A stretch of DNA of 35,452 nt from Ignavibacteriota bacterium (GTDB lineage: Bacteria; Bacteroidota; Ignavibacteria; UBA10030; UBA6906), in the NCBI GenBank assembly GCA_963801355.1, contig CAWDEM010000007.1, positions 1 through 35,452 of the forward strand, given 5' to 3'. A model generated the notes under the pieces. It ran no database searches, had not been told where the DNA came from, and saw only the letters and a program-made list of their open reading frames with translations. Every line of letters starts with the position of its first letter. The first letter of the stretch is position 1. A program made the position numbers and the translations under genes. This document shows, piece by piece, positions 1 through 33,035 of this stretch.

Positions 1-1285
1 ATCGGCTCGAACCGTTGGTCTCGGACACCCAACCGATGAGGAAGGTGGAGAGGATTCTGCCGAGACCCGCGCCGGTACCCGAGATACCGCTGACCGAGGC
101 GACCGAGCCGCTTGGGAAGAGGTCAGACGGCAGGACGAGAATCATTGTCGAGAAAGAAGCGTACGCAAACGTGGAGAAGCCGAAGAGGGCCGCAAGCGCA
201 AAGGGGCTGGAGACGAATGCCGTCGTGGAGAGCATCGCCATTCCCAGGCCGCCGAACCAGATCACGGCTTTGCGGGCCTTGCCGACGGACCACCCACGCC
301 GGATGAGCCAGCTCGACATCCCGCCTCCGAAGAGAAATTGCCGAGATCAGCCGCAAGGAAGGGGATCCAGAACACCAAAATTCCTTCCTCGATGGCAATG
401 CCCTTTGCCACTAGGAACACTGCGAACCAATCCGCGATGAAGAAGCCGACGGGATCAGTGAGAGACCGTCCGATGATCACTCCCCAGGTCGGGGGAAGGG
501 TCGGCGGTACATGCCAGCTCATCGTCGAAGCCTTCATCGAATCCCATAGGAATCATGTTGACCGTTCTGCCGGATCATGGCAAGTTCTTTTTCGCTGATA
601 CGGGGATGCTCCTCCGGCCGATGATACAGGAAACGCCACGCGATCGCCCAGATGAAGCCCAGGGTTCCTGTCAGCATGAACGCCAGCCGCAGCCCACCGA
701 ACGTTTGGTAAAGCCAGATGACCAGAAACGGCGCAATGGCCCGCCCGGCACGCGACAGGCGCTGAAAGGGCGGGGTCGCCGGCCCGCGCTCGCCCTCGTG
801 CAGATCGCTTCGCCGCCGCTGGCGTCGCACCAGGCCAGTTCCTCGTTTCGCCGCCCAGGAGGGAACAGAAGGTGCTAAGTTCTGCGAGTGCGCTCGCGCA
901 ACGATGCGCCGTTGCTGGAGATGGGATTGCCGAGAGCACAGTCAAGGACGGGCGCTTCCCGTCCCGATCCTGTCCAGAATCCTGCCCAGGGCCGCCTGGC
1001 CTATGGCGTGAGCAACCCGGAAGGAAATAACCACAAGCACGAAATCCTAATTGTTGAGATCATTCCTCTGAGGAACAGTCTAGGCCCGAGAGTCTGTGTG
1101 GATCCTGGAATGTAATGAATAACCTCCATCAAGAGTCAAAAAGCAATGGTGCAATCGCCATCGCCAGCGGCCTTCCTCGATTTCCTCTTCCCCCCCGGTA
1201 CCGGGTTGGTGCTGTCCCGCTTCGGGCTGTGAAGCGGCAGGTGGGGATCGTGGGGAGCCATCGGATACTTTCTGGCAGAACTCAT
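1..1285 (-). pseudogene. Frameshifted ExuT-like (ACS family) MFS sugar-acid transporter, running off the window start
   Basis: Successive - strand frames give ExuT-like segments in the right order: VVISFRVAHAIGQAALGRILDRIG (~1040-970), NWPGAT (~840-825), [75 protein letters not shown]...[12 protein letters not shown], then after a shift at ~332 [20 protein letters not shown]...LPSDLFPSGSVASVSGISGTGAGLG. There are multiple stops and frameshifts. Candidate ATG at 1285 follows GAGG. It may be a sequence-error artefact. Confidence 0.8.
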
Positions 1286-1374
1286 GGGTGCCTCTTGTCG
1301 AGGACGGTGGTACGAACACGGTTTGCTGAGCGCTCCGGCCGCCGGGATGACATGGATCTCGATGGGAAAGGCTT

Positions 1375-3168
1375 TCAGAGCCGGATCTGGCCAGCGATCG
1401 ATTTCCGGTCCCGCCCCGCCATCAGACGCACGTCGCCCGAATCTACGTGGAAGACCACCTCCCGCCGTGAACCGGCGATGCGTATCGTTCCGGCATCGGT
1501 CTGCCGGTATGTCATCCCGTTGTGGTCGATCACAGGCTCCACGATGGTAATCTCCGGCTGCGCATCACGATAGTGAAGAGTCACGGTCTTCCGGATGGAG
1601 GTGTCGGAAATCGTGTGATGCAGAGTATACCCGACCGCTCCGTTCAACCATGTGCTGTCTCTGAGTTCGCCGGTGGCGGACAAGGTGAAGACCGATGTGT
1701 CCTGGCGATGCGTTTCCAGGACAGCATCGTACTCAAACAGATTTGTGTAATAGCCGGTGGAATCCTCATACTCGATTCGTGGGGTAAGGCTTTTTAATTC
1801 CCCCATCACCGGAAAGCTCATCGGCTCCCATCGATAGTAGAATGTCTGGCTTGATGATTGGAGCGATCCGTGATCTTTCAGCCACAGATTTGATATGACG
1901 CCGCCCGTCGGCCGGTACATGTACTTGCTTCCCGACCGTTTGGCGTAGTCCTTGTAGCGGTACGCCGTCACGGTTGCCATGAAATTCTTTGTACGTACCT
2001 CGACGACGTCGAGTGTCGGAAAGAGCTTCATCCAGCCGGGCAGTTCGGTCGGAAGTGCTGCGGCAGGCCGTACGTCCCGCGTGTCCACCTCATAGGCAAG
2101 CGCCAGGTTCTTGGCTTTTGTGAAGGTCGGATATATGCAAGGATCCTTTGAGAAGATATCCCAATAGTGGGGTCCGTATCCGACCAGTCCATCCTTAACG
2201 TTCGTTCTCAGATAAGCGAGGTTCATGACCGCAGCAGATGCAAAGCGGGGATCGTCATCCGCGAACAAGGCAAAAAGTACCTGACAGCCATCGGAAGTTG
2301 CGCTTCCGTAGGTCGTCCACTTGTTGGAACGAATTCCCCAGGATCCATCCATGGAGCCGTCCGGATAGATGAAATACAGGTGATTGGCAAGCGATGTTCG
2401 CACCCGTTCCCTGACGCGTTCGTCGCCGGTAAGCCAGGCATAATACCCCAGGCCCCAGAGCGACATCTCCATATCGTATCCCAGGTCCACGCCCAACTTG
2501 TTTCCGAGGCGGCCCCGTCCGCCCTCCGCGCTGATAAATCCATCGCGATCCATCTTCGCTATGGTCCGGCGGGCGAGTTCTTTCGCCCTTCCCGAATAAT
2601 CGCTTTTGGGTATCAATGTGTATGTGGAAGCCAGGGATGCGGCAGTGGTGGCGCAATAGTTGATGCTGGCAAATTCCGGGGTCATCACTCTGGTGAGATA
2701 GTCGGCGGCCTTCTCGATCGAAGTCTTCCAGGCGATCCGTTGCCTCTCATTGAGCAGGCCGGACAGATGGCTGTACGCCAGCACCATCATCAGCAGTTGA
2801 TCGGTCGTGGTTCCGGTCCACTCTTCAGGAGTCTCCTTCCAGCTGCCGTCCTTCTGCTGCTGTTTGATCAGCCAATCACCGAGAGCAACGGCAGAGCGCG
2901 CATACTGTGCGTCTCCGGAGATGCGGGAGGCTACCGCAAATGGATAGAGTGCTTCTGCCGCACGAGTGTGGAGAACCCCGCAGTGATCGCATCGCAGAGC
3001 CCCGTAGTTTGCGTCCGCCTTGTCCGGGATCTGCCGGCTCAGTAGCGCAGGCACAAACTCCATCAACGTGGATGCAAGCTCTTTCCGCAGAGCGATATCA
3101 TGCGAGGATTGGGCGCATGCGGAAGCCGCGGAAACCAACAGGAGCAGAAGTAGTATACGCTGACGCAT
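1375..3168 (-). CDS. Secreted uncharacterised protein, predicted helical-barrel N-terminal region plus beta-rich C-terminal region (putative carbohydrate-active enzyme)
   Basis: 597 aa from ATG 3168 with signal peptide MRQRILLLLLLVSAASACA. It has a CDHCGVLHTR motif and helical-hairpin motifs (WLIKQQQKDGSW; YPDGSMDGSWG). The last ~8 codons may be frameshifted. Confidence 0.8.
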   Translation of the reverse strand: MRQRILLLLLLVSAASACAQSSHDIALRKELASTLMEFVPALLSRQIPDKADANYGALRCDHCGVLHTRAAEALYPFAVASRISGDAQYARSAVALGDWLIKQQQKDGSWKETPEEWTGTTTDQLLMMVLAYSHLSGLLNERQRIAWKTSIEKAADYLTRVMTPEFASINYCATTAASLASTYTLIPKSDYSGRAKELARRTIAKMDRDGFISAEGGRGRLGNKLGVDLGYDMEMSLWGLGYYAWLTGDERVRERVRTSLANHLYFIYPDGSMDGSWGIRSNKWTTYGSATSDGCQVLFALFADDDPRFASAAVMNLAYLRTNVKDGLVGYGPHYWDIFSKDPCIYPTFTKAKNLALAYEVDTRDVRPAAALPTELPGWMKLFPTLDVVEVRTKNFMATVTAYRYKDYAKRSGSKYMYRPTGGVISNLWLKDHGSLQSSSQTFYYRWEPMSFPVMGELKSLTPRIEYEDSTGYYTNLFEYDAVLETHRQDTSVFTLSATGELRDSTWLNGAVGYTLHHTISDTSIRKTVTLHYRDAQPEITIVEPVIDHNGMTYRQTDAGTIRIAGSRREVVFHVDSGDVRLMAGRDRKSIAGQIRL

Positions 3169-3228
3169 GAATGAACTCCCGTGCCATGGTTCACGTAAAC
3201 CGGCCATCAATTGCAGCAGACACACCAC

Positions 3229-4887
3229 CTATCGGAAATTTCCCTCCGAGACCACGCCCACACCGCGTTCCGCCGTGAAGTCCTTCGTGACGTTGCGAAA
3301 GAGATTCCCATGCAGGAAGATGTCCCGGGACCGGCTCCCGCGAACCTGCAAAAAGGTTTCTGTCCGTGATGCGGGCGCAGAATGCCGGATGGTAATGGCA
3401 CGCGAGTCTTCAACCGTGATGAATGCTTCGCTGAGGGAGTCCACATCCGCGCGAAGTCCGTCGACGATCCCGTTCTCCACGTCCACCAGGCGTACGACAG
3501 GACGCATGTCCCGCGTCTTGCAGTCGAGCGTCCAGTCTACTACAGAAATGCCGCGGGCATGACGGACGTACAGTCCGTATGCAGGCAACTTGTCCCATGC
3601 AGTGCTCTCGGGATAGATGTCCTCGAGTTCAGGCATTTCCTTTTCCGCATCCGCTGCAGTGCCACCGCCGGCATACGTGACACGGATGTTGCTCAGTCTG
3701 ACGTTTTCTACCGGATGACCCGGGATGCCGCTGACGGAGCATCCGATTGCCCCTGCATTGCTGACGATCAGATCGTGAACAGAAATATTTCGCACGACCC
3801 CGGCAGGCGGAACCGGGGCTGACGGCGTGTACTTCCTTGCACGGTTCCCGAGTCTCACATACACAGGTACCCGGGGTCCATCAATCGTGATATTCCCGAT
3901 AGTGATCCCTTCCATGATTCCCCCGTCGACCACCGCGAGGGTAATCCCGCTGATCCCCGCAGCATGTCCCGACAACACCGTATCGGCCATCGAGGGCTTC
4001 ACCACGATATTCGACACCGTGATGTTGCGGAATCCGCCGGTGGATTCGGTACCGCATTTGATGGCATTACAGTGACTGCTCAGGATGCAGTTGGTGATCG
4101 TGACATTCTCGGTCATAAGGGGTGAAGTGCTCTTAAGCGTGATAGCATCATCATCGGTATCCCCGATGCAGTCGGAGATCACGACATTCTTGCATCCGTC
4201 GATATCCATCATGTCGTTGTTCTTGTTGGCGTGGTTGTACACCCTGATCCCGTGGATGATCAGGTTGTCACACCCGAGGTAGTGTTGCATCCACATGGCG
4301 GAGTTCCGCATAGTGATCCCCTGGATGCGCACGGAAGTGCATCCCACGAAACGGAGAAGGTACGGCCGGTTCATGTAACGGTCCGGTCTGACCGTCGTTG
4401 TAACCTTGAACGCGCCTCCCTGACCATCGATTGCTCCTTCACCACGAATCGAGATATTCTCCGCTCTCTCAGCATAGAACAGGCTGTATTTCAAGAAGAC
4501 GTCATTGTACGAACGGAAAGCCGGAACGTGCTCTGCATAGTCCTTCAGGTCCTTGCTCCCCAGAATCACTGCTCCGGCTGCTATGTAGAGATCGACATTG
4601 CTTTTTAGGTCGATGGAGCCTGTCAGGAAATTCCCCGCAGGGACAAACACCGTCCCGCCCTGGCTTGCACAACGGTCGATAGCCGACTGAAGCGCCTTTG
4701 TATCCAGAGTGACGCCGTCCCCTACCGCCCCGAAATCCCGGACGTTGTATGAAATGCCGGATTGACTGGCGAGGGATGCTGCTCCGCAGAGCATGAGCAA
4801 TCCGGTCAGAAGCATCGCATTTCGAAGACGCGTTGTCATATTCATGCCGGTTGGATCGAGCTCCGAAAGAAGTGGCTGACGGATCAT
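3229..4887 (-). CDS. Glycoside hydrolase family 28-like (pectin lyase fold) secreted protein
   Basis: YNVRDFGAVGDGVTLDTKALQSAID N-terminal motif, NNDMMDIDGC, DTDDDAITLKS and NAIKCGTES, plus a signal peptide. The start is either 4887 (ATGA overlap with the upstream stop) or 4845/4839. Confidence 0.88.
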   Translation of the reverse strand: MIRQPLLSELDPTGMNMTTRLRNAMLLTGLLMLCGAASLASQSGISYNVRDFGAVGDGVTLDTKALQSAIDRCASQGGTVFVPAGNFLTGSIDLKSNVDLYIAAGAVILGSKDLKDYAEHVPAFRSYNDVFLKYSLFYAERAENISIRGEGAIDGQGGAFKVTTTVRPDRYMNRPYLLRFVGCTSVRIQGITMRNSAMWMQHYLGCDNLIIHGIRVYNHANKNNDMMDIDGCKNVVISDCIGDTDDDAITLKSTSPLMTENVTITNCILSSHCNAIKCGTESTGGFRNITVSNIVVKPSMADTVLSGHAAGISGITLAVVDGGIMEGITIGNITIDGPRVPVYVRLGNRARKYTPSAPVPPAGVVRNISVHDLIVSNAGAIGCSVSGIPGHPVENVRLSNIRVTYAGGGTAADAEKEMPELEDIYPESTAWDKLPAYGLYVRHARGISVVDWTLDCKTRDMRPVVRLVDVENGIVDGLRADVDSLSEAFITVEDSRAITIRHSAPASRTETFLQVRGSRSRDIFLHGNLFRNVTKDFTAERGVGVVSEGNFR

Positions 4888-7412
4888 GGGACCCGGGTCA
4901 TCACAATTTCTGTGAGGACTCCCGGAGGAAGCGTCAAGGGGACATGTTCACCTGGCGTTGTCACAGAGACGGTTGTCTTGACGATCCGGCCTTGTGATCG
5001 CAGTTCCAGCGTGTAGCGGCCACGTGCAAGCCGCCAGGGCCTCATGATCACCTTTGTATCCCCATCATTAAAGTTGAACGCATCCACAGTCAGGAGAGAT
5101 TCAGTCGAGGTTTTGGCGAGAATGGCCAGATGTTCGTTTGTCTCGCGCCATGACACGGCAAAGTAGGGGGAATTACCCTCGGGAGTGGCATCTCCGGAGA
5201 TCATGGCTTTGAGATGTTCTGTGCCCGGGATCCTGACCCGGTCTGTGTGCATCACCAGCGATGTCCGGAGGGGAGCATTGTAGCGAAGTGTCTCGAGCAG
5301 CTCAAGCAGTCCATCTTCGAGAGATTCCTCGCCCTTTGTGAGCTGGTATTTGAGATAGGGTGTACTCTGTTTCGCAATGAGGTCGTCGAAGGCGTCATTT
5401 CCCGTGAGCATCCGCCATTTCTGCACGGTCGACCAGAAGGCATTGTTGCGGAGCAAACATTCGGCTACCCATGGTTCGCTTCCCGGCTCGAAAGTGCGCT
5501 TGCTGAGGTCTTTCTGAGCGGCCAGCTGGTTCTTCACGAGCTGTAGAGTAAGTTCCATCGGGCGGAGCAGGGAATCGTTGCCGGTAAGACCGTATGTGAA
5601 CACCAGGTGGTCCAGAATGGTCCCGCCGCACCTGCTGGACCAGGAATAATAGTCCCACATCATGTTAGGCTCGTACCAAGTGGGTTCATCGCCGTTGATC
5701 GCTTCATCGGACCAGCGGATCGACGCCGGGACGATGCCTGACGGTTTTCCTTTGTCGGTACGGAGGGAGGCGGAGAGCCATGCACGCGCCCATTCATCGG
5801 TCAACCGGACATACCGTTCGTCGCGGGTTGCCCAGGCAAGGTAGCGCAACGGTTTCAGCGCGCGGGAGTTCATCTCCAGATCACGATTGCGGGGAGGACG
5901 TTCGTCGATGCCGGTTGCCCCGAGCCATGCCGACCTGAAGAAGCGGTGGCCGTATCTGTTCTTCGCAGACCAGAGGTGTTCGAAGTAATCGGGGGTGAAC
6001 ATCAATCGTTTCAGGTAGGTGGAGTCGTCGTCGACGAGCAGCAGCTCGGGGGTGGAATCTGAAATGAATTCAGCCGAATGCTCGACATCCCGCACATATT
6101 TTGAGTATCCATTGTGCACACGCGGATTAACCCAGACGGCATCGGCAAGTCGCTTCCACCCGCGTATGGTCGTCTCATCGCCGAACAACAACATGGGGAT
6201 CCACTCACGCAGGATTTCCACATCATCGTCGATCTTCCCTCCCAACTCACCGTTGGCGCCCTGGCGCGTGTTCACCCACCAATCGATCTCGAATGTGAGC
6301 CGGCTGATCGCCTCGCGCTCCAGCACTGCCCAGCGGGGGGCATTCGCCGGTGCAGGGAGATGGTCGCTGGGATCGGGGAGGTCCACCCGCCGTCCGTTCA
6401 GCATGGCCAGCCTACGATCCTCCGGGTACCGCCCCAGGAGCCAGCGGAGATCCTGGCGTCCGATTCTTGCCTGGTACCACCCTCCTCGTTCGAGCACCAG
6501 ATCATAACAGATTTTTCCCCTGACCCAGCGTGCGCGTTCGATGAGGGGATTCGTTTCCTGCGGGAAGTTCTCAATGTTCGCATCCAGCAGCATCAATGCC
6601 TCGTGCATGCGATCGAAGATCGATACTCCGGTGATCTGCGTGGCCCACTCCCATCCCTCCATGTTCCTGAGGCGCTCCGCTTCGGCCAGCAGTCCCATCT
6701 GCTGGTGCCAGTAGAACAGTCGTTCATCCGAGGGATTGTTTTTCAGTTCAATGGTCAATGCGCGGAAGAGTGCCTCGGACGAGACAGTAGACCCGTACTT
6801 CCCCGCATCCGTGATCAACCTGCCGGACTTCGAATCCGGGATAGGGGCACTGCCGTCCCCGGGTATGAATGTGCAACCGAGCAGCCGGACGGAATCCCGT
6901 ACGCCGCGCAATTCGAACGAAAGGCCGGGAGCGGTCAGAGCATAATTGAGGTGAATGACCCTGTAGACTGCAGAGGGTGCGGTCCGGCCTTCTTCGTCCG
7001 GTTTCAAGAAGTGCCATACCACCGGGTGGGGACTGCCATTGATGGTGAGGAGAGTAGTTGCAGAGTCCTCATACCCAACTTCCATCCAGAATGTGAACCA
7101 CCAATTACCTTTTGGGAGATCGATGCGAAAGCCGATAGTCTTCGCGGTCACTCCGTCGGAGGTCAAATCATCGCGCAGTGTTCCGTTGCGTTCCTTCTCT
7201 TTCGTGAATGTGGAGACCATGGGAGTGGTCCATCCGAATCCCCGGGACTCGCTGTACGTATCAGCCGCCGTGAGCGGAATTGAAAACCGGTCGACGGTGC
7301 CTCCTGCGGGACCTGCGTCAAACGCATAGGGCTTTGTTGTCAGTTCTGCAGCAAAGAGGGGAGGAAGGAGAAGTGTGAAGAGCAGAGCATAGAGAGAGAC
7401 CCGACTGCGCAT
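4884..7412 (-). CDS. Secreted 842-aa uncharacterised protein: N-terminal galactose-binding-like beta-sandwich plus predicted (alpha/alpha)-barrel
   Basis: Signal peptide MRSRVSLYALLFTLLLPPLFA at 7412, just downstream of a consensus promoter. YAFDAGP...TYSESRGFGW...FRIDLPKGNW resembles the accessory domain of YesT/YxiM-type esterases. It has an acidic motif WWVNTRQGANGELGGKIDDDVE and DVEHSAE. Confidence 0.8.
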   Translation of the reverse strand: MRSRVSLYALLFTLLLPPLFAAELTTKPYAFDAGPAGGTVDRFSIPLTAADTYSESRGFGWTTPMVSTFTKEKERNGTLRDDLTSDGVTAKTIGFRIDLPKGNWWFTFWMEVGYEDSATTLLTINGSPHPVVWHFLKPDEEGRTAPSAVYRVIHLNYALTAPGLSFELRGVRDSVRLLGCTFIPGDGSAPIPDSKSGRLITDAGKYGSTVSSEALFRALTIELKNNPSDERLFYWHQQMGLLAEAERLRNMEGWEWATQITGVSIFDRMHEALMLLDANIENFPQETNPLIERARWVRGKICYDLVLERGGWYQARIGRQDLRWLLGRYPEDRRLAMLNGRRVDLPDPSDHLPAPANAPRWAVLEREAISRLTFEIDWWVNTRQGANGELGGKIDDDVEILREWIPMLLFGDETTIRGWKRLADAVWVNPRVHNGYSKYVRDVEHSAEFISDSTPELLLVDDDSTYLKRLMFTPDYFEHLWSAKNRYGHRFFRSAWLGATGIDERPPRNRDLEMNSRALKPLRYLAWATRDERYVRLTDEWARAWLSASLRTDKGKPSGIVPASIRWSDEAINGDEPTWYEPNMMWDYYSWSSRCGGTILDHLVFTYGLTGNDSLLRPMELTLQLVKNQLAAQKDLSKRTFEPGSEPWVAECLLRNNAFWSTVQKWRMLTGNDAFDDLIAKQSTPYLKYQLTKGEESLEDGLLELLETLRYNAPLRTSLVMHTDRVRIPGTEHLKAMISGDATPEGNSPYFAVSWRETNEHLAILAKTSTESLLTVDAFNFNDGDTKVIMRPWRLARGRYTLELRSQGRIVKTTVSVTTPGEHVPLTLPPGVLTEIVMTRVP

Positions 7413-7444
7413 GTGCTTGAGCCTGTAGCCATGGTTAAAAGCTA

Positions 7445-7474
7445 AGTATACGCATTTCAGAAAGCGAATGTCAA
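7445..7474 (-). promoter_or_regulatory. Sigma70-type promoter for the leftward operon
   Basis: On the - strand TTGACA (7474-7469), N18, TATACT (7450-7445), about 32 nt upstream of ATG 7412. Confidence 0.7.
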
Positions 7475-7761
7475 GGTACACTCGCATGATCGCATCGCCC
7501 GCGTGATCGCGTCGCGATGGATGTCGTCGCAATCGCCATGAGTGCAGGGAACCCATCCAGCAGCACGAACGTTGAGAATAGCAAAATGAATTCCGAATCC
7601 GGCGACAGCAATTCCTCCGGGAAAGGTCTTCACAGGACTCGCATCCGGTGTGCACAGCATCCTGCGGGGTGCGAATGAAGAGAAGAAGTGAGGATGTCTC
7701 ATCCGGGATCGTATCCCTGAGAATGTACTCTAGGTATTTCCTGCGATCCCAAAAATAATCC

Positions 7762-7790
7762 TTGATTTTCTTTTAGCTTTGTAGTATGTT
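7762..7790 (+). promoter_or_regulatory. Sigma70-type promoter for the regulator/TBDR operon
   Basis: TTGATT (7762-7767), N17, TATGTT (7785-7790) in an AT-rich tract. Confidence 0.6.
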
Positions 7791-7793
7791 TCC

Positions 7794-7820
7794 CCTGGTT
7801 TACCAGGTATACCAGGTATA
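7794..7820. promoter_or_regulatory. Putative GntR-family operator (palindrome plus tandem repeat)
   Basis: CCTGGT-TT-ACCAGG inverted repeat (7794-7807) overlapping tandem TACCAGGTA x2 (7801-7818), immediately after the -10 box. It fits the GntR GT-Nx-AC pattern. Confidence 0.7.
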
Positions 7821-7858
7821 TCCCTCAGAGCTTTTCCGGATCGGTGGACGCGCAAAAC

Positions 7859-11889: not shown

Positions 11890-11957
11890 GCAGGATCTCA
11901 GGTACAATTTGCAGTCTCACTGTTCCAATACGTTCACCAATCGTGGAGGGTTGCATC

Positions 11958-13499: not shown

Positions 13500-13524
13500 G
13501 GCCACGCAGGCAATTCGCAATGAA

Positions 13525-13573
13525 CAGGTAGCAGGCGGATAGTGGCACCGTTGGCTGTTCCGCCTGCTACTTG
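13525..13573 (+). terminator. Strong stem-loop after the TBDR/T9SS gene pair (terminator or mRNA-stabilising hairpin)
   Basis: GTAGCAGGCGGA (13528-13539) / TCCGCCTGCTAC (13559-13570) is a perfect 12-bp stem, extendable to 15 bp. The U-tract is weak. Confidence 0.6.
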
Positions 13574-13778
13574 CTGCTTACAATTGCCTTCTGAAGCCGC
13601 TGAGTCCACAGAGCACGGGGGCCAGGTCCAACATCCTTTCAGTGTTCTCCCCGGGTGAGTCGGAATTGAGCACTGGACCTGATCTCTGCATCAGTAGTCC
13701 CAACGACAGAACGAATGGACTTTCACCGATGACCATGCAACGCCGGTACACGCAGTCCTGGAAGCAGGTGTTTGCCGC

Positions 13779-15266: not shown

Positions 15267-15409
15267 CGGACGGTGCGCTCTTCTGGTTTATCGTCCTCGC
15301 AGTGGCTGCGCTTCTCTTCTTCGGCGTTGCACTGGTGGTGACGATCCGCGGTGTCGGCGACCTGCGTGATCTCCTCAACCGGCCCTCGCGACGGGGAGAC
15401 AACGAATGA
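15263..15409 (+). CDS. 48-aa single-TM membrane microprotein (putative SSS accessory subunit)
   Basis: GGAGGA RBS and ATGA overlaps with both neighbours. Sequence MTDGALFWFIVLAVAALLFFGVALVVTIRGVGDLRDLLNRPSRRGDNE. Confidence 0.8.
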   Translation: MTDGALFWFIVLAVAALLFFGVALVVTIRGVGDLRDLLNRPSRRGDNE

Positions 15410-17100: not shown

Positions 17101-17117
17101 ATCTCCGGAGTGGCACC

Positions 17118-18998: not shown

Positions 18999-19018
18999 TC
19001 ACAACGGATACAGCGACA

Positions 19019-21589
19019 ATGCGGAAACTCCTCCTGACCGTCGTTCTCTGTGGCATGTGTATCTGTCCATCCCTGAGCGCACAGCGTACGGTGCCAATAG
19101 TGCCCCAACCCCAAGTGATCAGGGAGCTGGGTGGGTACGTCACCTTCATCCCGGCACAAACGTCCATCCAGCTGGCTATCCGCGACACCGCCGCTATCAT
19201 GCCGGCGATCAACGACCTCTGCTCGACCTCCGTTGCGCTCTATGACAAGGCGCCATCGTTCGCAGGGAAGGGCCGCCTTCTCCTCAGGGCAGGCGTCTTT
19301 GGCGTTGATCCTCGGTTTGACCGCCTCTGTGCAAGGAAAGGACTTGCCGCGGAAGACCGCCTGGGAGAAGAAGGCTATCACCTGCTGATCGAACCCGGAA
19401 CCATCCTTGTGGCAGCCCGATCGCCTCGCGGCGTTTTCTATGGACTCCAATCCTTCCATCAGCTTCTCAGGGGAGCAGCCTCGTCGAAGGGCAGGATACC
19501 GGCCATGAGGGTGAGTGATTGGCCGGTCATGCGTGTCCGTGCGGTAATGGACGACATCAGCCGGGGACCCGTGCCGACGCCCGCATACTTTCGTCAGCAG
19601 ATCCGGAGGAGTGCTGAGCTGAAGGTGAACACGATGTCCTACTACACAGAGCATGTCGTAGCCACGAGGAGTCACCCCGAGTTTGCACCCCCCGGAGGAG
19701 CGCTCAGCATCGCCGAGTGGAAAGAGATCGCTGCCTTTGCCCGCATGTACCATATCGATCTCATCGGCAACTTCCAGTCATTCGGCCATTTCGACAAGAT
19801 CCTGGCCACGCCCCGGTATGCGCATCTGAAAGATGGCAAGAGCTTGCTTTCTCCCGCACTCGATGAGAGTTATGCATTGCTCCGGGATGTCTATGATGAA
19901 ATGGTTCCCGCATTCTCATCACGGTTCTTCAACGTAAACTGCGACGAAACATTTGACCTGGGACGCGGGCGATCCAAAGCGATGGTGGACAGTCTCGGAA
20001 AGGGGAGGGTGTACCTCGGACACATTCTGAAACTCAGAGAGATGCTCCAACGTCTGGGGGTGCGCATGGTCGTCTGGGGGGACGTCTTGCTCGAGCACCC
20101 CGAAGTGATCGAACTTGTTCCCAGGGATGTGGTCATCGGGACCTGGACATACGACTCGCTCGCCGACTTCCGCCGTTACATCACGCCCTTCACATCCCGG
20201 GGGTTCGATGTGCTCGTCACCCCCGGGGTGCTGAATTCAGGGAACGTCCTTCCCAATTTCCGGCAGTCATTTGCCAACATCCGGCGGTTTGTCCGCGACG
20301 GCGTGGCGGAGCACGTCATGGGCGCGATCACAACGGTATGGGATGACGGGGGGACGGCGCAGTTCATGAGAGACTGGTACGGCGTGGCGTATGCCGCCGA
20401 TCAGATGTGGAATTCCGACACGCTCGACACATCCTTCCCGCAGCGATTCGACGTCGCGTTGTACGGCGACCAACAGCACGTACTCTCGCGGGGCATTGAC
20501 ACACTCCTTCAGTTGGCTGATCTTGCCCCGACAGACGGCATGAGTGAACGGAATCTCTGGCAGCCCGTTATCCCGCCTCCGGGCCAGTCGATGCGCCTGG
20601 ATATGACAGATTGGGAACGGGTGCTTTCAACTGCGGACGCGGCGGATGCCGTTCTTCGCAGCGGTCACTCTCAGGTATGGCCGGAGGACCTGGATGCAAT
20701 GCGGTTCGTTGCAGAGCTCTATGCCGGAGTGGCCCGGTTGCGTCTTGGCATCCGCGATGCGGCGGAACGTTACAGAGTTGCGGTGCAGGACCAGCAGCCA
20801 GAACCCGGGCGCGCCCGGGAGGGTGTAGTGGTAGCTTTGAATATTGTCGGGAATTTGCGCGACGAGTACAGGCGGCTGAAGACCCGTGCCATCACGACGT
20901 GGCTGATGGAGAGCCGCCTCTTTGCGCTTGATTCGGTGGAGCGTTTCTATGACGAGCGAATCCGGGACCTGTCGGATGTAGAACAGCACCTCCGCTCTGC
21001 GCTGGCCGGCTTTGAACAAGGCCGACCCCTTCCATTGCCGGAGACAGTGAGACTCGGCATCATCGAATCGACGGGCGGGTATTTCCGCGACTGGCTGGTT
21101 ACGGGACCCGTGGAGGGAAACGAGATCTCGACGGACTATCTTTATCCCATGGGGGGTGAAGCACGGAACATCCGGCCTCGTGTGACCCAGGAATTTGTCC
21201 GCGCGGGCAAAACCTACAGATGGAGCAGGCTCTCCGCGCGCACAGCCGCGGAAATTGATTTTGCGCAGTTATTCCCCCAGGCGGGCAAATCGACAATGTA
21301 TGCCTATGCGACGATTGAAAGCCCTGCCGCCATGACAGTTCCCGCCCTGCTGGGCTTTGGAGGGAGCATGCGTGTTCTCATCAACGGCATCCAGGCCTAC
21401 CAGCGTGAGGGCCGCGAGAGCTTGATCGTCGATGAGGACACGCTCTATATTCCTCTCAACCCCGGAATCAATCACCTCCTGATCAAGATCTGCAGCGGAA
21501 CTTCCGGCGATTGGGGATTCTCCTGTCGCCTCTCCGATTCCGCCGTGCGGAACAGGAAAAACCGGTATCGAGTCGTCCTGCAGAACTGA
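19019..21589 (+). CDS. GH20-like beta-N-acetylhexosaminidase with C-terminal beta-sandwich domain, secreted
   Basis: Signal peptide. GH20 domain 2 (IVPQPQ...EEGYHLLI...GVFYGLQSF), DWP..RAVMDDISRGPVP, QSFGH, catalytic pair in NVNCDETFDLG, and TTVWDD. Confidence 0.85.
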   Translation: MRKLLLTVVLCGMCICPSLSAQRTVPIVPQPQVIRELGGYVTFIPAQTSIQLAIRDTAAIMPAINDLCSTSVALYDKAPSFAGKGRLLLRAGVFGVDPRFDRLCARKGLAAEDRLGEEGYHLLIEPGTILVAARSPRGVFYGLQSFHQLLRGAASSKGRIPAMRVSDWPVMRVRAVMDDISRGPVPTPAYFRQQIRRSAELKVNTMSYYTEHVVATRSHPEFAPPGGALSIAEWKEIAAFARMYHIDLIGNFQSFGHFDKILATPRYAHLKDGKSLLSPALDESYALLRDVYDEMVPAFSSRFFNVNCDETFDLGRGRSKAMVDSLGKGRVYLGHILKLREMLQRLGVRMVVWGDVLLEHPEVIELVPRDVVIGTWTYDSLADFRRYITPFTSRGFDVLVTPGVLNSGNVLPNFRQSFANIRRFVRDGVAEHVMGAITTVWDDGGTAQFMRDWYGVAYAADQMWNSDTLDTSFPQRFDVALYGDQQHVLSRGIDTLLQLADLAPTDGMSERNLWQPVIPPPGQSMRLDMTDWERVLSTADAADAVLRSGHSQVWPEDLDAMRFVAELYAGVARLRLGIRDAAERYRVAVQDQQPEPGRAREGVVVALNIVGNLRDEYRRLKTRAITTWLMESRLFALDSVERFYDERIRDLSDVEQHLRSALAGFEQGRPLPLPETVRLGIIESTGGYFRDWLVTGPVEGNEISTDYLYPMGGEARNIRPRVTQEFVRAGKTYRWSRLSARTAAEIDFAQLFPQAGKSTMYAYATIESPAAMTVPALLGFGGSMRVLINGIQAYQREGRESLIVDEDTLYIPLNPGINHLLIKICSGTSGDWGFSCRLSDSAVRNRKNRYRVVLQN

Positions 21590-21600
21590 AGGTTCGCGCC

Positions 21601-22866
21601 ATGACATCACATCGTATCATCCCGTCCCTCTCCCTTGTGCTCCTTCTTTGCATTGCGGCGGGGGCGCAGACAAAAAAGAGTGACCTCCGGGAAGAGATCC
21701 TCAATGCTATCGTCTCATGTTCCGACTACATGACCGGTGTGCTGATCGACAGTACGGGTAAATCCCGTTGTGATTACCAGATGGTGAAAGGCCTATGGCA
21801 GGACTATGAACCGCCATGGCATACCGGACAGATCATCAACGCGCTGGTGGAGGCACACCGTGTGACCGGGAATCAACGCTTTCTCGATGGGGCACGGAAG
21901 GCCGGCGACTGGTGGGTCGGGATGGAGATCAGAGACCATCCGGTGCTTCGGGGGATGGTACGCGCCATTCACGGTGACGGTCTCGAGTACATCGTGTTCG
22001 CCACCGTGTCGGATGGTACGCCGGGACTCTTCCGTTTGTACCGGGCCACGGGCGAGCAGCGATATGCCGAAGTGCCGACCAATGCCGGCCGGTGGATGCT
22101 GGCGAACATGTACAACCCCCAGCACCGCGTGTTCTATGATTGCGTGGACCCGCTCACGGGAAAGGTCATGAAAGAGCGGAGTCCCTTCTGGCCGGCAAAA
22201 CAGAAGCAGAGCATCTTCGATGTCGCCCGCCCCAACAATGAGGGATCGCTCTTCAAGGATATGTATCTGTACACGCGGGACGAGCGCTACCGGTCAATGT
22301 TCATCGAACTCTGCGAAAGCCTGCTTTCATATCAGGACGAGCATGGTCTGTGGATGCAGTTTGTGCCAAACAATGCGAGTGACAGTTCGTTCCATCCGCG
22401 CTTCAATCTGTGGTATGCGGAGTCGTTGCTGGAGGGGTATGTATTGACGAAAGATCCTCGCTACCTGGAGGGCGCCCTGCGAACTGCCCGGACCTATGCG
22501 AAGTTCATGCAGAAGGATGGAACCTTCTACTACACAAACTATCTCAACGGGAGTTCCAACAAGAACTCCATCTGCGGTTCCGCGACTGCATTCTGCGGCA
22601 TCGTATGGCTCAGGCTTCTCGAGTACGGCGTGGGCGAGGAATTCCGGCCCTTGATCGAGCGTGCCGCAGCTTGGATCCTCAACAACAGGTTTGCCCCGGA
22701 CCATCCCGATCCAAATCTCGCGGGCGGTGTGCTGGAGACGCGGGTCCGCACAAAGGGGTCGGGCGTCTGGCTGGTGAATAGAGACATCGCCACGTCGTTC
22801 GGTGTCCGGTTTTTGTGCGACTACTATACATGGATGACGAAAGGGGCGGAGAAGAAGATCAAATAG
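21601..22866 (+). CDS. Secreted six-hairpin glycosidase-like protein, family unassigned
   Basis: 421 aa from ATG 21601 with a signal peptide. Repeated hairpin motifs (AHRVTGNQRFLDGA, LYRATGEQRY, MYLYTRDERY, GYVLTKDPRYLEGA). Confidence 0.8.
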   Translation: MTSHRIIPSLSLVLLLCIAAGAQTKKSDLREEILNAIVSCSDYMTGVLIDSTGKSRCDYQMVKGLWQDYEPPWHTGQIINALVEAHRVTGNQRFLDGARKAGDWWVGMEIRDHPVLRGMVRAIHGDGLEYIVFATVSDGTPGLFRLYRATGEQRYAEVPTNAGRWMLANMYNPQHRVFYDCVDPLTGKVMKERSPFWPAKQKQSIFDVARPNNEGSLFKDMYLYTRDERYRSMFIELCESLLSYQDEHGLWMQFVPNNASDSSFHPRFNLWYAESLLEGYVLTKDPRYLEGALRTARTYAKFMQKDGTFYYTNYLNGSSNKNSICGSATAFCGIVWLRLLEYGVGEEFRPLIERAAAWILNNRFAPDHPDPNLAGGVLETRVRTKGSGVWLVNRDIATSFGVRFLCDYYTWMTKGAEKKIK

Positions 22867-22914
22867 TGCTACTGCAATAGTCTGACGATCGGCATAAACA
22901 AGCGGAGGTCATAC

Positions 22915-23667
22915 GTGCAAAATCATGAAGTGGCGGTACACGTGTTTTCGAGCCGTGAGCGGATGGGTGATGCAGCCGGCCAAGCGGTGCGCGGAGCGCT
23001 GTTCGAGGTTCTGAAGAACAAGCCGGAGGCACGCGTAGTATTTGCCGCCGCCCCGTCCCAGGTGGAGTTTCTCGCCGCACTCGTCCGGTTTGACGACATC
23101 CCCTGGCAACGGGTGATTGGCCTCCATATGGATGAGTACTTCGGTCTTGCGAAAAATGCTCCTCAGAGCTTCGGTTTCTTTCTGCGGCAACATATATTCG
23201 ACCGGGTTCCGTTCGGGCGGGTTGAATACATCGATCCCACAACGGTGGACCCCGCCTCCGAGTGCAGGCGCTATGCAGAAGTACTGAAGCAGGCGCCCAT
23301 CGATATCATGTGCATGGGGATCGGAGAAAACGGGCATATTGCGTTCAACGATCCGCCCATCGCCGATTTTGCCGACCCTCTCACGGTGAAGATTGCCGAT
23401 CTCGACGAACGGTGCCGGCAGCAGCAGGTGAACGATGGAAGCTTCCCGACTCTTGCAGACGTGCCGCGGCAGGCCATCACGCTGACTATCCCCGCACTTC
23501 TCACTTCGCCGAGAATCTTCGTCGTTGTGCCGGGGCCGAGAAAAGCGCAGGCGGTGCATGATGCCCTGCGAGGTCCGGTAAGCAGCGCGTGCCCGGCTTC
23601 TGTGCTCCGGACACATCCCCGGGTGGAATTGTTTGTTGATGCACAGTCGGCCGCACTCTTGAGGTGA
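22915..23667 (+). CDS. nagB: Glucosamine-6-phosphate deaminase-like protein (NagB family variant)
   Basis: GGAGG RBS plus GTG start. HMDEY, GIGENGHIAFNDPP, VPRQAITLTI and CPASVLRTH. The phosphate loop is FAAAPSQ rather than the canonical GxxTGxTP. Confidence 0.8.
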   Translation: MQNHEVAVHVFSSRERMGDAAGQAVRGALFEVLKNKPEARVVFAAAPSQVEFLAALVRFDDIPWQRVIGLHMDEYFGLAKNAPQSFGFFLRQHIFDRVPFGRVEYIDPTTVDPASECRRYAEVLKQAPIDIMCMGIGENGHIAFNDPPIADFADPLTVKIADLDERCRQQQVNDGSFPTLADVPRQAITLTIPALLTSPRIFVVVPGPRKAQAVHDALRGPVSSACPASVLRTHPRVELFVDAQSAALLR

Positions 23668-23670
23668 ACG

Positions 23671-24909
23671 ATGAGACGGCATGCAAGGCAAATCCTCCTC
23701 GCCGGCTTCATCATTCTGGTCACTGCCTGTACCTGTACGGCCCAGAATGATCCACGGGCGGTGCTTCAGCGCATCACCAACCGGATCGTGCAACAGACTT
23801 CCTACCAGATCGTCGACACTGCAACAAAGGCACTCCTCCCGGCCGGACAGCTGGGGAAAGTGTCGCACTCCGTGCGGATTGCCAGTGACTATAACGACTG
23901 GACATACTTCATGGGAGTGGTCTTGAGCGGAATGATGAGCGTTGCCGATGCAACAGGGGAGGAGGAACGCCGGGCGTACGTCATTCGCGACTTTGATTTC
24001 ATTTTTGACTGTCTGCCGTACTTCCAGGAACAATGGGAGGTCCTGCAGGTGAGGCGGGCGAGCTATTACCGGATATTCAGGATGAACATGCTCGATGACT
24101 GCGGCGCAATCGGTGCGGCGCTGGTTGACGCGTACCGGCAGAAGCATGATGAACGGTATCTCCGGATGATCAGAAAAATTGCAAACTACATCAGCAACGT
24201 GCAGCTTCGACTTGAGGATGGGACGCTTTCCCGCCCGGATCCGAGATACATGACCCTCTGGGCAGACGATCTCTATATGAGCGTGCCGTTCCTTGCCCGC
24301 ATGGGTACCCTGACAGGCGAGACACGCTATTATGACGATGCGGCCCGTCAGGTGACGGGGTTTATGTCCCGATTGACTGATCCAGAGACAGGGCTTTTGA
24401 AGCACGCGTGGTTCAGTGATTCGAAGACCGTCTCGGTTGCTTCTTGGGGACGTGCAAACGGATGGGCCATCATGGCGCAGGCGGAACTCCTGCGTCATCT
24501 CCCGTCCAACTATCCGATGCGCGATTCGCTGGAGCAGCTGTTCCGCCGGCACCTCCTGGCACTCTGCCGTTATCAGGATGCCACCGGGTTGTGGCATCAG
24601 GTGCTGGACCATCCAGACTCGTACCTCGAGACCTCCTGTTCTGCAATGTTCTGTTACGGGCTTGCGTTTGCCGTGAACACCGGGATAATCAAAACCTCTT
24701 ACCGTGACACTGCACACAAAGCCTGGAAGGGAGTTGCCTCACGTGTGCGTGCAGACGGCCAGATCGAGGGGATATGTCGCGGGACAGAAGTGGGATTCGA
24801 TCTGAAATTCTATTACGATCGTCCGGCACCCCTAAACGATACACGTGGAATCGGTGCTGTACTCCTCGCGGGCGCCGAGCTCATCCGTCTTGACCGAAAG
24901 CAGCGTTGA
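23671..24909 (+). CDS. GH105 (GH88/105) unsaturated uronyl hydrolase, secreted or lipoprotein
   Basis: LDDCGA, LWADDLYMSVPFLAR, WGRANGW, GLWHQVLD, SYLETSCSAMF. The N-terminal signal has a possible lipobox VTAC. Confidence 0.9.
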   Translation: MRRHARQILLAGFIILVTACTCTAQNDPRAVLQRITNRIVQQTSYQIVDTATKALLPAGQLGKVSHSVRIASDYNDWTYFMGVVLSGMMSVADATGEEERRAYVIRDFDFIFDCLPYFQEQWEVLQVRRASYYRIFRMNMLDDCGAIGAALVDAYRQKHDERYLRMIRKIANYISNVQLRLEDGTLSRPDPRYMTLWADDLYMSVPFLARMGTLTGETRYYDDAARQVTGFMSRLTDPETGLLKHAWFSDSKTVSVASWGRANGWAIMAQAELLRHLPSNYPMRDSLEQLFRRHLLALCRYQDATGLWHQVLDHPDSYLETSCSAMFCYGLAFAVNTGIIKTSYRDTAHKAWKGVASRVRADGQIEGICRGTEVGFDLKFYYDRPAPLNDTRGIGAVLLAGAELIRLDRKQR

Positions 24910-24963
24910 AGCGATACGGCAGACATCCATCACGCCTCTACCACGCAGCATGCTGACCGTGGT

Positions 24964-26037
24964 ATGACACTCCAGGACCTCACCCCGTATCTGGACGACC
25001 TCGAACAACGGATTGACGAGGCCGCAGAAGCCTCACTCTTCCAGGCTTGGGTGGAGTTCACGGAGGGAAGGTGCAGTGAGCCGCTGTTCGCGCCTTACAG
25101 GTCTCTCCGGAGACCTCCCAATCTTGACTGGCCCGCCGCCAGTCTCAATTCGACTCTCTCCGATCCCCTGTTGATGCTCTACCATCAGCTTTCCGTGAAC
25201 TCCAGAATCCTTGCCGGGGGAACCGGCGCACTACTCGGTATTCGTGCGAACTTTGGCACGCCGATTCTCCCTTCGATGTACGGCGCCAGTCTCTACCTGA
25301 TGCCGGAGGCAACAGACACTCTTCCTACCTGCTACCCGCTCCCGGGCGGGTTGGATGATGCACTCCGACTTCTGGACAAGGGAGGGCCGGATCTGACAGC
25401 GGGCCTGGCCCCCGCGGTGCTCGAAACGGGAGAGCTTTTCCGCGACGTGCTCCGGGAGCGCCCGCGTCTTGCGCGTCGCATTACACTCTATCACCCTGAT
25501 TTGCAGGGTCCGATGGATGTGTGTGAACTTCTTCTGGGGAGTGAACTCTTTACCGATCTCATCGATCGTCCGGAGGGAGTCCACGCCGTGCTGCAGTCAA
25601 TTACGGGAACCTATGCAAGATTTATGAGACGCTGGCTGGAGATCGTCCCGCCGATGGAGCGTTGGAGTGTTCACTGGCATATGCTTCACCGCGGACGGAT
25701 CATGCTAAGGGATGATTCCGCCACAAACCTGTCGCCGGCGATGTTCGAGGAGTTCATCAAGCCGTACGACCAGGAGCTGCTTGAAGCGTTTAGCGGTGGA
25801 GGGTTACACTTCTGCGGCAGGGGAGACCGGTTCATTGAGGTGGCCGCGACCATCCCACGTCTGCACGCGATCCATATGTCTCAACCGGAGCTTAATGATG
25901 TTGAGAAGGTTCTCCGGCACACAGTGGATAGAGGGATCCATATCATCGGACTGAAGCGCGAGGCCGGGCAGCAGTTGACACGGCAGGGGAGTCCACTCAG
26001 GGGGCGTGTCCACTGTTGGGATGGGATTCCGAAGTGA
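24964..26037 (+). CDS. Uroporphyrinogen decarboxylase/MtaA-like (URO-D/CIMS fold) protein of unknown function
   Basis: DLQGPMDVCELLLG, DDSATNLSPAMFEEFIKPY and GLHFCG motifs. It lacks the HemE N-terminal PVWxMRQAGR signature. Confidence 0.75.
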   Translation: MTLQDLTPYLDDLEQRIDEAAEASLFQAWVEFTEGRCSEPLFAPYRSLRRPPNLDWPAASLNSTLSDPLLMLYHQLSVNSRILAGGTGALLGIRANFGTPILPSMYGASLYLMPEATDTLPTCYPLPGGLDDALRLLDKGGPDLTAGLAPAVLETGELFRDVLRERPRLARRITLYHPDLQGPMDVCELLLGSELFTDLIDRPEGVHAVLQSITGTYARFMRRWLEIVPPMERWSVHWHMLHRGRIMLRDDSATNLSPAMFEEFIKPYDQELLEAFSGGGLHFCGRGDRFIEVAATIPRLHAIHMSQPELNDVEKVLRHTVDRGIHIIGLKREAGQQLTRQGSPLRGRVHCWDGIPK

Positions 26038-28915: not shown

Positions 28916-28925
28916 AGACGAATGC

Positions 28926-31885: not shown

Positions 31886-31889
31886 GCAC

Positions 31890-32951: not shown

Positions 32952-32969
32952 GCAGTTGTGCTCAGAAAT

Positions 32970-32998: not shown

Positions 32999-33035
32999 CT
33001 GTTCTCGAACTGCATTATGAATCCCTAACCTTTAG

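Follow-up and report, generated by a model that had tools for sequence, protein, structure and literature searches.

A SusD-less TonB-dependent locus for a putative acidic heteroglycan in an Ignavibacteriota bacterium, and an orphan protein family conserved in related loci

Bacterial loci that join a TonB-dependent receptor (TBDR), glycosidases, a lyase, a GH105 hydrolase, transporters and a regulator are of a known kind, and the described systems closest to the one analysed here are the ulvan loci, the rhamnogalacturonan-I (RG-I) locus of Bacteroides thetaiotaomicron, glycosaminoglycan (GAG) systems and the carbohydrate utilisation (CUT) loci of Xanthomonas and Caulobacter. The present locus spans positions 1-26037 of a 35,452-nt stretch of DNA from an Ignavibacteriota bacterium (contig CAWDEM010000007.1), hereafter called the window. 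I read it, with moderate confidence, as a SusD-less TonB-dependent locus for an unsulfated acidic heteroglycan that contains beta-glucuronic acid, 4-linked uronic acid and hexosamine, and that would be broken down along the route proposed below. What is new is the family of a secreted orphan protein of 842 amino acids (aa), encoded at 4884-7412, together with its conserved context. Two further elements are also new: a toroid-only paralog of a lyase domain, and a recurrent pairing of a TBDR with a putative beta-helix protein of the type IX secretion system (T9SS) in place of SusD.

One source (PMC12915356) describes ulvan loci as holding TBDRs, glycoside hydrolases (GHs) and major facilitator superfamily (MFS) transporters, with multiple sulfatases as core components. 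The window has none of these sulfatases, and no rhamnosidase was recognised in it. The same source (PMC12915356) gives the PL40 enzyme Uly1040 as a protein of 856 aa with a strictly conserved catalytic His in its beta-domain and conserved Asn, Tyr and Asp, whereas the lyase-type protein of the window (1375-3168) has 597 aa and belongs to a family whose beta-domain contains no invariant His in 47 sequences; the two were compared by description only. The Formosa PL37 enzyme, stated as 69.31 kDa in a review (PMC11395424), is close in size to the 600-650 aa of the 1375-3168 family, and the agreement is one of size only. The ulvan loci of Formosa agariphila and Alteromonas macleodii (Uly1040), with PL37 or PL40 and GH105, and the window are alike in that a toroid-plus-beta-sandwich lyase-type protein is accompanied by GH105, a TBDR and an MFS transporter.

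The RG-I polysaccharide utilisation locus (PUL) of B. thetaiotaomicron reportedly follows a lyase-plus-GH105 logic and holds a SusC/SusD pair. The window shares this lyase-plus-GH105 logic, and its GH105 enzyme is closest to PDB entry 3k11, presumably a B. thetaiotaomicron protein, while its GH28 enzyme is closest to a BT4146-type model. It differs in having no SusC/SusD pair, in a GH28 score of 295 bits that stays below the equivalog cut-off of 500, and in encoding a beta-glucuronidase equivalog as well as GH20-like and NagB-like proteins; pectin-type lyases (families PL9, PL11 and PL26) were not seen in the window. The likeness to GAG systems lies in the top structural neighbours of 1375-3168, which are GAGase II and VII (8khv, 8khw) and the PL33 hyaluronan lyases (8r73, 8r71), and in the combination of a beta-glucuronidase, a hexosaminidase-type enzyme and a NagB-like protein, which fits a polymer of uronic acid and N-acetylhexosamine (HexA-HexNAc). 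Unlike in GAG systems, the unsaturated uronyl hydrolase is of the GH105 type and not GH88, no solved lyase is matched by sequence, and there is no sulfatase. CUT loci, finally, serve TBDR-based carbohydrate utilisation, and the window resembles them in its TonB-Xanth-Caul type of TBDR and in a SusD-free gene set that joins this TBDR to inner-membrane transporters, glycosidases and a regulator. It departs from them in that its TBDR has an N-terminal CarboxypepD_reg domain, as SusC proteins do, and is accompanied by a T9SS-exported beta-helix protein, a combination that is not known from any CUT locus.

The genes stand in two divergent arms around a 431-bp intergenic region (7413-7843), and the G+C content over the locus is 55-60%. 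In transcription order, the minus arm runs from the 842-aa protein (7412 to 4884) through GH28 (4887 to 3229) and the 597-aa protein (3168 to 1375) to an MFS gene that runs off the left edge; the orphan and GH28 genes overlap by 4 bp, and 1375-3168 begins 60 bp downstream of GH28, co-oriented with both. The plus arm encodes the regulator, the TBDR, the protein with a T9SS C-terminal domain (CTD), two sodium:solute symporters (SSS1 and SSS2), GH2, the GH20-like enzyme, a 421-aa protein, the NagB-like protein, GH105 and a URO-D-like protein. A preliminary description of this DNA, made from its sequence alone, had proposed two divergent operons with a shared control region, and the open reading frame (ORF) listing together with Pfam and NCBIfam scans of 27 window ORFs bears this out. 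The scans likewise agree with its gene content (GH28, GH2, GH20-like, GH105, NagB-like, two SSS and a TBDR), and neither a SusD family nor a sulfatase family, both of which it had reported missing, was found among the 27 ORFs. Judged by eye from the translations, the periplasmic set has signal-peptide-like N-termini, which GH2 and the NagB-like protein lack, and the gene starts chosen earlier at 3168, 7412 and 21601 coincide with hydrophobic stretches of this kind. The view of a coherent locus in which beta-glucuronidase, a GH20-type enzyme, a NagB-like protein and GH105 fit a glycan of uronic acid plus amino sugar also stood.

The orphan protein (4884-7412, minus strand, secreted) has a confident AlphaFold2 (AF2) model (pLDDT 93.2, pTM 0.90) with an N-terminal beta-sandwich, a central helical barrel and a small C-terminal beta-sandwich. 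Pfam and NCBIfam scans of 4884-7655 returned no family, and no core family was seen in any of the alignment members scanned (53/53). A sequence search of the PDB with the protein alone gave no match, and the family profile matched only an N-terminal YxiM-like domain (E 0.0074). Structural comparison with Foldseek gave weak matches to the barrel only, namely to GH127 (E 6.8e-06, TM ~0.2), GH76 (TMt 0.56), chondroitin ABC lyase I (E 3.4e-05), GH78 and GH146, and profile comparison by hhalign shows the family to be unrelated to the lyase-fold family of 1375-3168 (1.0% probability) and to the toroid-only family (1.5%). Sixty relatives were found, one of which (P0173, 1394 aa) joins the orphan to a GH88/105 domain at residues 1052-1387. 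Asp, Glu and Trp predominate among its invariant residues, which contain a single His and a single Tyr and include D396, D397, E399, D442, E444, H445, E448, D452 and Y686; by sequence, this pattern leans towards a hydrolase or a metal site. The 842-aa family accompanies GH105, GH20-like and NagB-like genes in a core conserved across phyla and is most likely a new carbohydrate-active enzyme family. More tentatively, and with clearly less confidence, this new family may be one of polysaccharide lyases that make the GH105 substrate, and together with the SusD-replacing T9SS beta-helix protein may form the core of an undescribed acidic-glycan system. Near-identical database proteins are shorter than those of the window: P0121 has 733 aa against 842 (98% identical), and P0190 has 372 aa against 518.

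To place the orphan in context, one genome per species was scanned with the 842-aa alignment, which gave 120 relatives, and 80 loci were kept, with lineages taken from record titles. By these labels, 16 loci belong to Balneolaceae and allies, 12 to Ignavibacteria/Melioribacteraceae, 11 to Planctomycetota, nine to unspecified Bacteroidota, seven to Saprospiraceae, six to unnamed bacteria, five to Cytophagia-type bacteria, four each to Rhodothermales and Opitutaceae/Opitutales, three to KSB1, and one each to Calditrichaceae, Fidelibacterota and Zhuqueibacter. The relatives nearest to the window, which comes from an uncultured bacterium, are labelled Bacteroidota, Ignavibacteria and Melioribacteraceae. 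L051 is from the cultured Balneola sp. EhC07, and the cultured Bythopirellula polymerisocia Pla144 (L057) has only the orphan gene. Loci that would share such a system carry the labels Ignavibacteria/Melioribacteraceae, Balneolaceae, Rhodothermales, Saprospiraceae, KSB1, Fidelibacterota, Planctomycetota and Opitutaceae. Synteny was counted by tblastn with the window proteins in those 65 loci that were 16 kb or longer, and because the orphan was the query, all co-occurrence frequencies are conditional on it. The GH20-like enzyme was found in 37 of these loci, the TBDR in 31, the NagB-like protein in 30, GH105 in 29, the T9SS beta-helix protein in 27, beta-glucuronidase in 25, GH28 in 18, SSS1 in 14, the toroid-only protein in 11, SSS2 in 10, the regulator in eight, the lyase-fold protein in four, and the URO-D-like protein in none. 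Co-occurrence in other genomes, which the preliminary description had set as a check on its own reading, was thereby strongly confirmed by the 80 related loci.

Two operon types recur in the gene orders. Loci labelled Balneola/Balneolaceae show the order TBDR, beta-helix, orphan, Nramp transporter, beta-glucuronidase, (GATase, SSS), xylose-isomerase-like TIM barrel, GH20-like, NagB-like, (PhyH, GH105). Loci labelled Ignavibacteria/Melioribacteraceae, and unnamed relatives, have toroid-only protein, Nramp, TIM barrel, GH20-like, (GH105), NagB-like and orphan, followed by one of two variants: TBDR, beta-helix and GH105, or a PL22-like protein, 3-keto-disaccharide hydrolase, GFO, GH28 and MR_MLE. 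Examples of the Nramp and TIM-barrel genes stand at 12507-13760 and 18067-18966 in locus L051 and at 2638-4859 in L008. Related loci also hold KduI, SDR, DUF4861, MR_MLE enzymes, GFO/IDH/MocA, 3-keto-disaccharide hydrolase, PhyH and GATase1-like proteins, and sulfatases in seven loci. Of these, KduI, SDR and DUF4861 are typical uronate-catabolism genes, and their recurrence counts in favour of an acidic, uronate-containing substrate. As a side observation, a protein with TonB_C and a weak match to PL22 (oligogalacturonate lyase) occurs in L007, L008, L013, L055 and L067, just after the orphan in four of the five; in three of them, genes for a 3-keto-disaccharide hydrolase and an oxidoreductase of the GFO/IDH/MocA type come next, a cluster that resembles an oxidative glycoside-cleavage module.

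The TBDR (9034-11889, plus strand) has an N-terminal CarboxypepD_reg domain and scores 434.6 bits with TIGR01782 (TonB-Xanth-Caul; cut-off 310). By model score it is not SusC/RagA, as TIGR04056 gave 67.2 bits against a cut-off of 368.25, over residues 68-219 only. Where a SusC/SusD-type PUL has a gene for a SusD-like lipoprotein beside the TBDR, the window has the gene of a T9SS-exported protein of about 430 aa (11943-13499, plus strand) with weak right-handed beta-helix signals and a putative beta-helix domain at residues ~36-430, and in 25 of the 30 TBDR-bearing related loci a gene of this family comes immediately after the TBDR. The CTD is recognised by TIGR04183 (35.8 bits, cut-off 23) and by PF18962 in all 48 family members, of which 15 match Beta_helix and 13 match DUF4957. 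No lyase family model matched the protein, and its profile matches in the PDB were confined to the CTD, with none on the N-domain. The family is very large (2672 matches), and Arg, Asn and Asp are prominent in its invariant cluster (N196, G197, R198, D201 and R203, with R146, R170 and R226). Taken together, 11943-13499 is a candidate surface binder or depolymerase. A literature search on TBDR, T9SS and SusD in polysaccharide utilisation by Ignavibacteria found no such loci described, by title or abstract, among the papers listed.

The preliminary description had seen no recognisable lyase in the locus, and this claim fails because the secreted 597-aa protein at 1375-3168 (minus strand) has Ulvan_lyase_N and Ulvan_lyase_C domains and a lyase fold. 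These domains (PF25840 and PF25841, respectively, by their Pfam 38 names) are precomputed in the protein database on the window protein (P0001) and on 120 of the 120 relatives listed, out of 695 matches; local Pfam and NCBIfam scans of 1375-3228 returned no family, with a local Pfam copy that does not contain the two models. In the alignment-based AF2 model (pLDDT 83.9, pTM 0.86), helices extend to about residue 361 and strands begin at residue 379, giving an (alpha/alpha) toroid followed by an antiparallel beta-sandwich, which is the two-domain fold of the PL8/12/15/17/33/35/39 class. Foldseek against the PDB matched only toroid-plus-beta-sandwich lyases and a dermatan sulfate epimerase, and the lyase matches were full-length (TMq 0.49-0.60 over about 600-720 alignment columns), led by PL35 (8khv, E 1.2e-09, TMq 0.58) and followed by PL33, PL17, PL15, PL12, PL8 and PL39. 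Sequence searches of the PDB with the protein and its family gave nothing meaningful, so that no solved lyase was matched by sequence, and a literature search on PF25840 and PF25841 found nothing. Invariant residues of the family include H67, N170, Y231, H263, Y268, Y403, Y405 and R419. By family and modelled fold, 1375-3168 is a recognisable lyase candidate, although with a frameshifted C-terminus.

The second protein with a toroid, at 21601-22866 (plus strand, secreted, 421 aa), is an (alpha/alpha)6-barrel without the beta-sandwich. Aligned by hhalign with the family of the 597-aa protein, its family is homologous to the N-terminal toroid domain of 1375-3168 (probability 98.6%, E 1e-15, 283 columns), and its profile matched GH76 (1.6e-10), cellobiose 2-epimerase (2.5e-07), UGL (5.4e-05) and PL10 (1.6e-04) in the PDB. 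The family is small (254 representatives). Among its nearly invariant positions are His, Gln, Tyr and three Arg, with Asp and Glu absent, and some relatives are fused to GH28 (P0302, P0304), GH2 (P0307, P0314) or an esterase (P0388). Of the three secreted proteins that the preliminary description could not assign, only the orphan therefore stays unassigned, as 1375-3168 falls into a named lyase-type family and fold and 21601-22866 is homologous to its toroid domain.

The presence of a lyase candidate in the window does not extend to the locus family at large. A recognisable lyase-type gene was found within 10 kb on each side in six of the 30 GH105-bearing related loci (PL22-like in L008, L013 and L067, Alginate_lyase in L037, and the lyase-fold family in L056 and L075) and not in the other 24. 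This count was made on one representative per ORF cluster with the local Pfam copy, which is without the newest models; the final sweep took ORFs of at least 200 aa and covered 40 of 54 representatives, the other 14 having been scanned earlier. In the window a lyase is not plainly absent, given the recognisable candidate, and the earlier idea of an undescribed lyase or depolymerase stays plausible for the conserved core of the locus family, because only six of 30 GH105 loci hold a recognisable lyase. As a family, GH105 is known only to act on the 4,5-unsaturated uronates that lyases produce, and since most related loci are without a recognisable lyase, unrecognised proteins probably perform the lyase step. 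A literature search that combined GH105, new polysaccharide lyase families and glucuronic acid returned only ulvan, gum-arabic and general papers.

From these assignments, the following route may be proposed. At the cell surface, the T9SS-exported beta-helix protein would bind, and perhaps cut, the polymer, and its partner TBDR would import the oligosaccharides. In the periplasm, 1375-3168 would cleave at 4-linked uronates by beta-elimination, as its fold and family name suggest, and GH105 would remove the resulting 4,5-unsaturated uronate, as is known of its family. The linkages that remain may be trimmed by GH28 and the GH20-like enzyme, and also by the 842-aa orphan and the toroid-only paralog (21601-22866), whereupon the two SSS and the ExuT-type MFS transporter would import mono- and disaccharides and uronates. 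In the cytoplasm, beta-glucuronidase and the NagB-like enzyme would complete the breakdown. Both arms would be controlled from the shared intergenic region by a regulator that combines a GntR-type helix-turn-helix (HTH) domain with a LacI-type sensor.

This route gives the lyase step to 1375-3168, and other proteins of the locus compete for it. The orphan could be the real, undescribed lyase that makes the GH105 substrate throughout the locus family, with the Ulvan_lyase-like protein as a window-specific accessory; I consider this rather unlikely, and it is kept alive by the adjacency of the orphan gene to GH105, which it adjoins in 12 of 30 related loci, and by the GH88/105 fusion in P0173. 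The 24 GH105-bearing loci without a recognisable lyase nearby, the helical barrel at the core of the orphan and the appearance of chondroitin ABC lyase I among its weak structural matches speak for it as well. However, the orphan is present in these loci by construction, its mostly Asp, Glu and Trp invariant residues are more like those of a glycoside hydrolase or a metal site, its model is without the large beta-sandwich of toroid lyases, its hhalign probability against the lyase-fold family is 1%, and its best structural matches are hydrolases (GH127, GH76, GH78 and GH146), at low TM. Alternatively, the T9SS beta-helix protein may be a surface endo-lyase or depolymerase and not merely the binding partner of the TBDR, which is possible, if doubtful. 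The right-handed beta-helix is a common lyase fold (PL1, PL3, PL6, PL9), the CTD implies export, the gene follows the TBDR in most related loci that have one, and the Arg/Asn/Asp-rich cluster and the scattered Beta_helix and DUF4957 matches would be in keeping with such an enzyme, but neither a lyase model nor a PDB relative of the N-domain was matched, and the size of the family fits a generic TBDR partner or a binding protein for many substrates. The locus might also contain no lyase step at all, with GH105 scavenging the products of lyases encoded elsewhere or by neighbours and the rest acting purely by exo-hydrolysis. The scarcity of recognisable lyases in related loci (6/30), the frameshifted end of the lyase-fold gene in the window and the full exo-set of beta-glucuronidase, GH20-like enzyme and GH28 agree with scavenging, which nevertheless seems unlikely: the related loci were covered to 10 kb each side only, the lyase-fold gene shares the orientation of GH28 and the orphan, 60 bp from the former, and a toroid paralog is also present in the window.

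The lyase assignment of 1375-3168, on which the favoured reading of the window relies, has points against it as well. Compared with its homologs, the protein lacks its final ~45 residues in frame, with a second tblastn segment in another frame at 1447-1310, so that the gene may be broken or the contig end error-prone; the lyase-fold protein is an accessory, present in only four of the 65 loci; and its C-terminal domain has no counterpart to the invariant His of PL40. Among the Foldseek matches listed, the highest TM belongs to dermatan sulfate epimerase (6hzn, TMq 0.60). Uronyl C5-epimerases and lyases share their first chemical step, abstraction of the C5 proton, and relatives P0013, P0014 and P0060 carry a precomputed C5-epim_C match, which would allow 1375-3168 to be a uronyl C5-epimerase of the same fold instead. 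I regard this as improbable, since most of the Foldseek matches listed are lyases, the Pfam family is named after ulvan lyase, and the GH105 enzyme of the locus depends on a lyase for its substrate. At the level of the locus family, clustering the 965 ORFs of all 80 loci showed that the commonest neighbours of the orphan are the Nramp transporter (41/80) and the xylose-isomerase-like TIM barrel (38/80), neither of which occurs in the window or plays a part in the proposed model. The signals for the substrate are mixed, too: GH105, GH28 and the Ulvan_lyase family name point to rhamnose-uronate or pectin-like linkages, while the PL33/PL35 structural neighbours, together with beta-glucuronidase and the GH20-like and NagB-like proteins, suggest a GAG-like HexA-HexNAc polymer. 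It may be speculated that an algal, cyanobacterial or bacterial acidic exopolysaccharide holding both types of linkage would fit.

The family-level identities on which the route draws are firm, namely the transporter types, GH105, beta-glucuronidase, GH28, the GH20 catalytic pair, the T9SS signal and the lyase fold. GH28 (3229-4887, minus strand) is a secreted beta-helix glycosidase, putatively of the alpha-galacturonidase or rhamnogalacturonidase type; it scored 73.1 bits with PF00295 (cut-off 22.9), and its best NCBIfam model is the BT4146-type rhamnogalacturonidase NF049898 (295.1 bits, cut-off 500). GH2 (17097-18998, plus strand) is a beta-glucuronidase by the equivalog NF007538 (557.3 bits, cut-off 544) and is probably cytoplasmic, because it has no signal-peptide-like N-terminus. 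N-x-K is the carboxylate-binding motif of GH2 beta-glucuronidases, and the N-K uronidase motif reported earlier was confirmed: 34 of the 35 relatives keep N582, and all 35 keep K584. The secreted GH20-like enzyme (19019-21589, plus strand, 856 aa) is a distant member of its family with a GH20b domain (PF02838, 54.6 bits, cut-off 26.1), a TIM barrel (PF00728, 34.4 bits, cut-off 22.3) and about 450 unassigned C-terminal residues. Its D309-E310 pair is invariant in 40 of 40 relatives, and its best PDB match is lacto-N-biosidase (8hvb, E 1.1e-11). The cytoplasmic NagB-like protein (22915-23667, plus strand), of the NagB/AgaI type of sugar-amine-6-phosphate deaminase or isomerase, belongs to the superfamily PF01182 (64.4 bits, cut-off 27) and stays below the NagB equivalogs TIGR00502 (nagB, 123.5 bits, cut-off 236.9) and NF001682 (128.5 bits, cut-off 528).

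The secreted GH105 unsaturated uronyl hydrolase (23671-24909, plus strand; PF07470, 289.5 bits) matched 3k11 (2.4e-70), YteR 1nc5 (1.4e-41), the ulvan-type 4ce7 (5.9e-20) and the annotated GH105 entries 3qwt and 4xuv in the PDB. A GAG-type GH88 identity was rejected, as the best matches are annotated GH105 entries and the family-88 entry 5noa reached only 2.2e-16. GH105 homologs in related loci are mostly longer, with 544-638 aa against 412 aa here (e.g. L008 7429-9171 and L034 12509-14425), and have an unassigned extension of about 200-290 aa ahead of the PF07470 match. The last gene of the plus arm (24964-26037) encodes a URO-D/MtaA-like protein that is just above the cut-off (PF01208, 24.1 bits against 23.9); it was rejected as a member of the conserved system on account of its absence from all 65 loci by tblastn, and one URO-D-like ORF was seen in L003.

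Inner-membrane transport would rely on SSS1 (13779-15266, PF00474 92.8 bits) and SSS2 (15406-17100, PF00474 109.8 bits), both on the plus strand, and on an ExuT/DgoT-type MFS transporter of the anion:cation symporter family (1-1050, minus strand). The claim of an ExuT-like MFS stood in so far as there are colinear matches to TIGR00893, a D-galactonate/hexuronate transporter model, but the gene is truncated at the window edge and its coding sequence is spread over three frames. The pieces, all on the minus strand, match model positions 115-190 (frame 537-941, E 5.4e-10), 217-267 (frame 265-552, E 0.018) and 271-376 (frame 2-346, E 1e-07; Pfam MFS_1 E 5.8e-06 on 2-319), and all are far below the 395-bit cut-off. 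Together with the C-terminus of the lyase-fold gene, positions 1-1450 thus contain at least four reading-frame disruptions in 1.45 kb, and none was noticed among the genes scanned in the other ~24 kb of the locus. They reflect either real decay of the end of the left arm or indel errors near the contig end.

The regulator (7844-9034, plus strand) carries a GntR-type HTH (PF00392, 52.6 bits, residues 16-79) and a LacI-type periplasmic-binding-protein sugar sensor domain (PF13377, 108.9 bits; PF00532, 91.8 bits). The divergent control region (7413-7843) contains a promoter-like site on the minus strand at 7474-7445 (TTGACA-18-TATACT, 11/12 matches), inverted repeats I2 and I3, and a palindrome at 7794-7818 just upstream of the regulator gene, whose core, AGGTATACC, has its only exact match in the window here. 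The palindrome is a candidate operator of the regulator, and the region would serve to control both arms.

To the right of the locus, a membrane protein of the Na+/H+ antiporter family (NhaC-type) follows directly (26220-27620). Three small genes come next (28295-30292), where G+C falls to ~0.51-0.53, encoding a DUF4440/SnoaL-like protein, an unassigned 119-aa ORF and a YNCE-like beta-propeller, and a tRNA-Ser with anticodon CGA stands at 30704-30791 on the minus strand (ARAGORN and Rfam). Four consecutive NAD-dependent epimerase/dehydratase genes fill 30908-35413, two of them with strong GDP-mannose 4,6-dehydratase-family scores (401.6 and 516.1 bits), and they probably serve nucleotide-sugar synthesis for a surface polysaccharide. 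Long antisense ORFs at 6114-7283 (plus), 13578-14534 (minus), 17781-18686 (minus) and 22909-24717 (minus) are most likely by-products of high G+C; the last (602 aa) is the one that was scanned, and it matched no family.

With a confident model, no family, no close structural neighbour and a neighbourhood that is conserved across lineages of the Fibrobacterota-Chlorobiota-Bacteroidota (FCB) and Planctomycetota-Verrucomicrobiota-Chlamydiota (PVC) groups, the 842-aa protein is a clean target for enzyme discovery. One step of an environmentally widespread glycan pathway is probably carried out by proteins that are not yet recognised for it. Genome mining based on SusC/SusD would miss the architecture of a TBDR followed by a T9SS beta-helix protein, which points to a different design of outer-membrane capture in FCB lineages outside Bacteroidia, and possibly to uptake that is independent of SusD.

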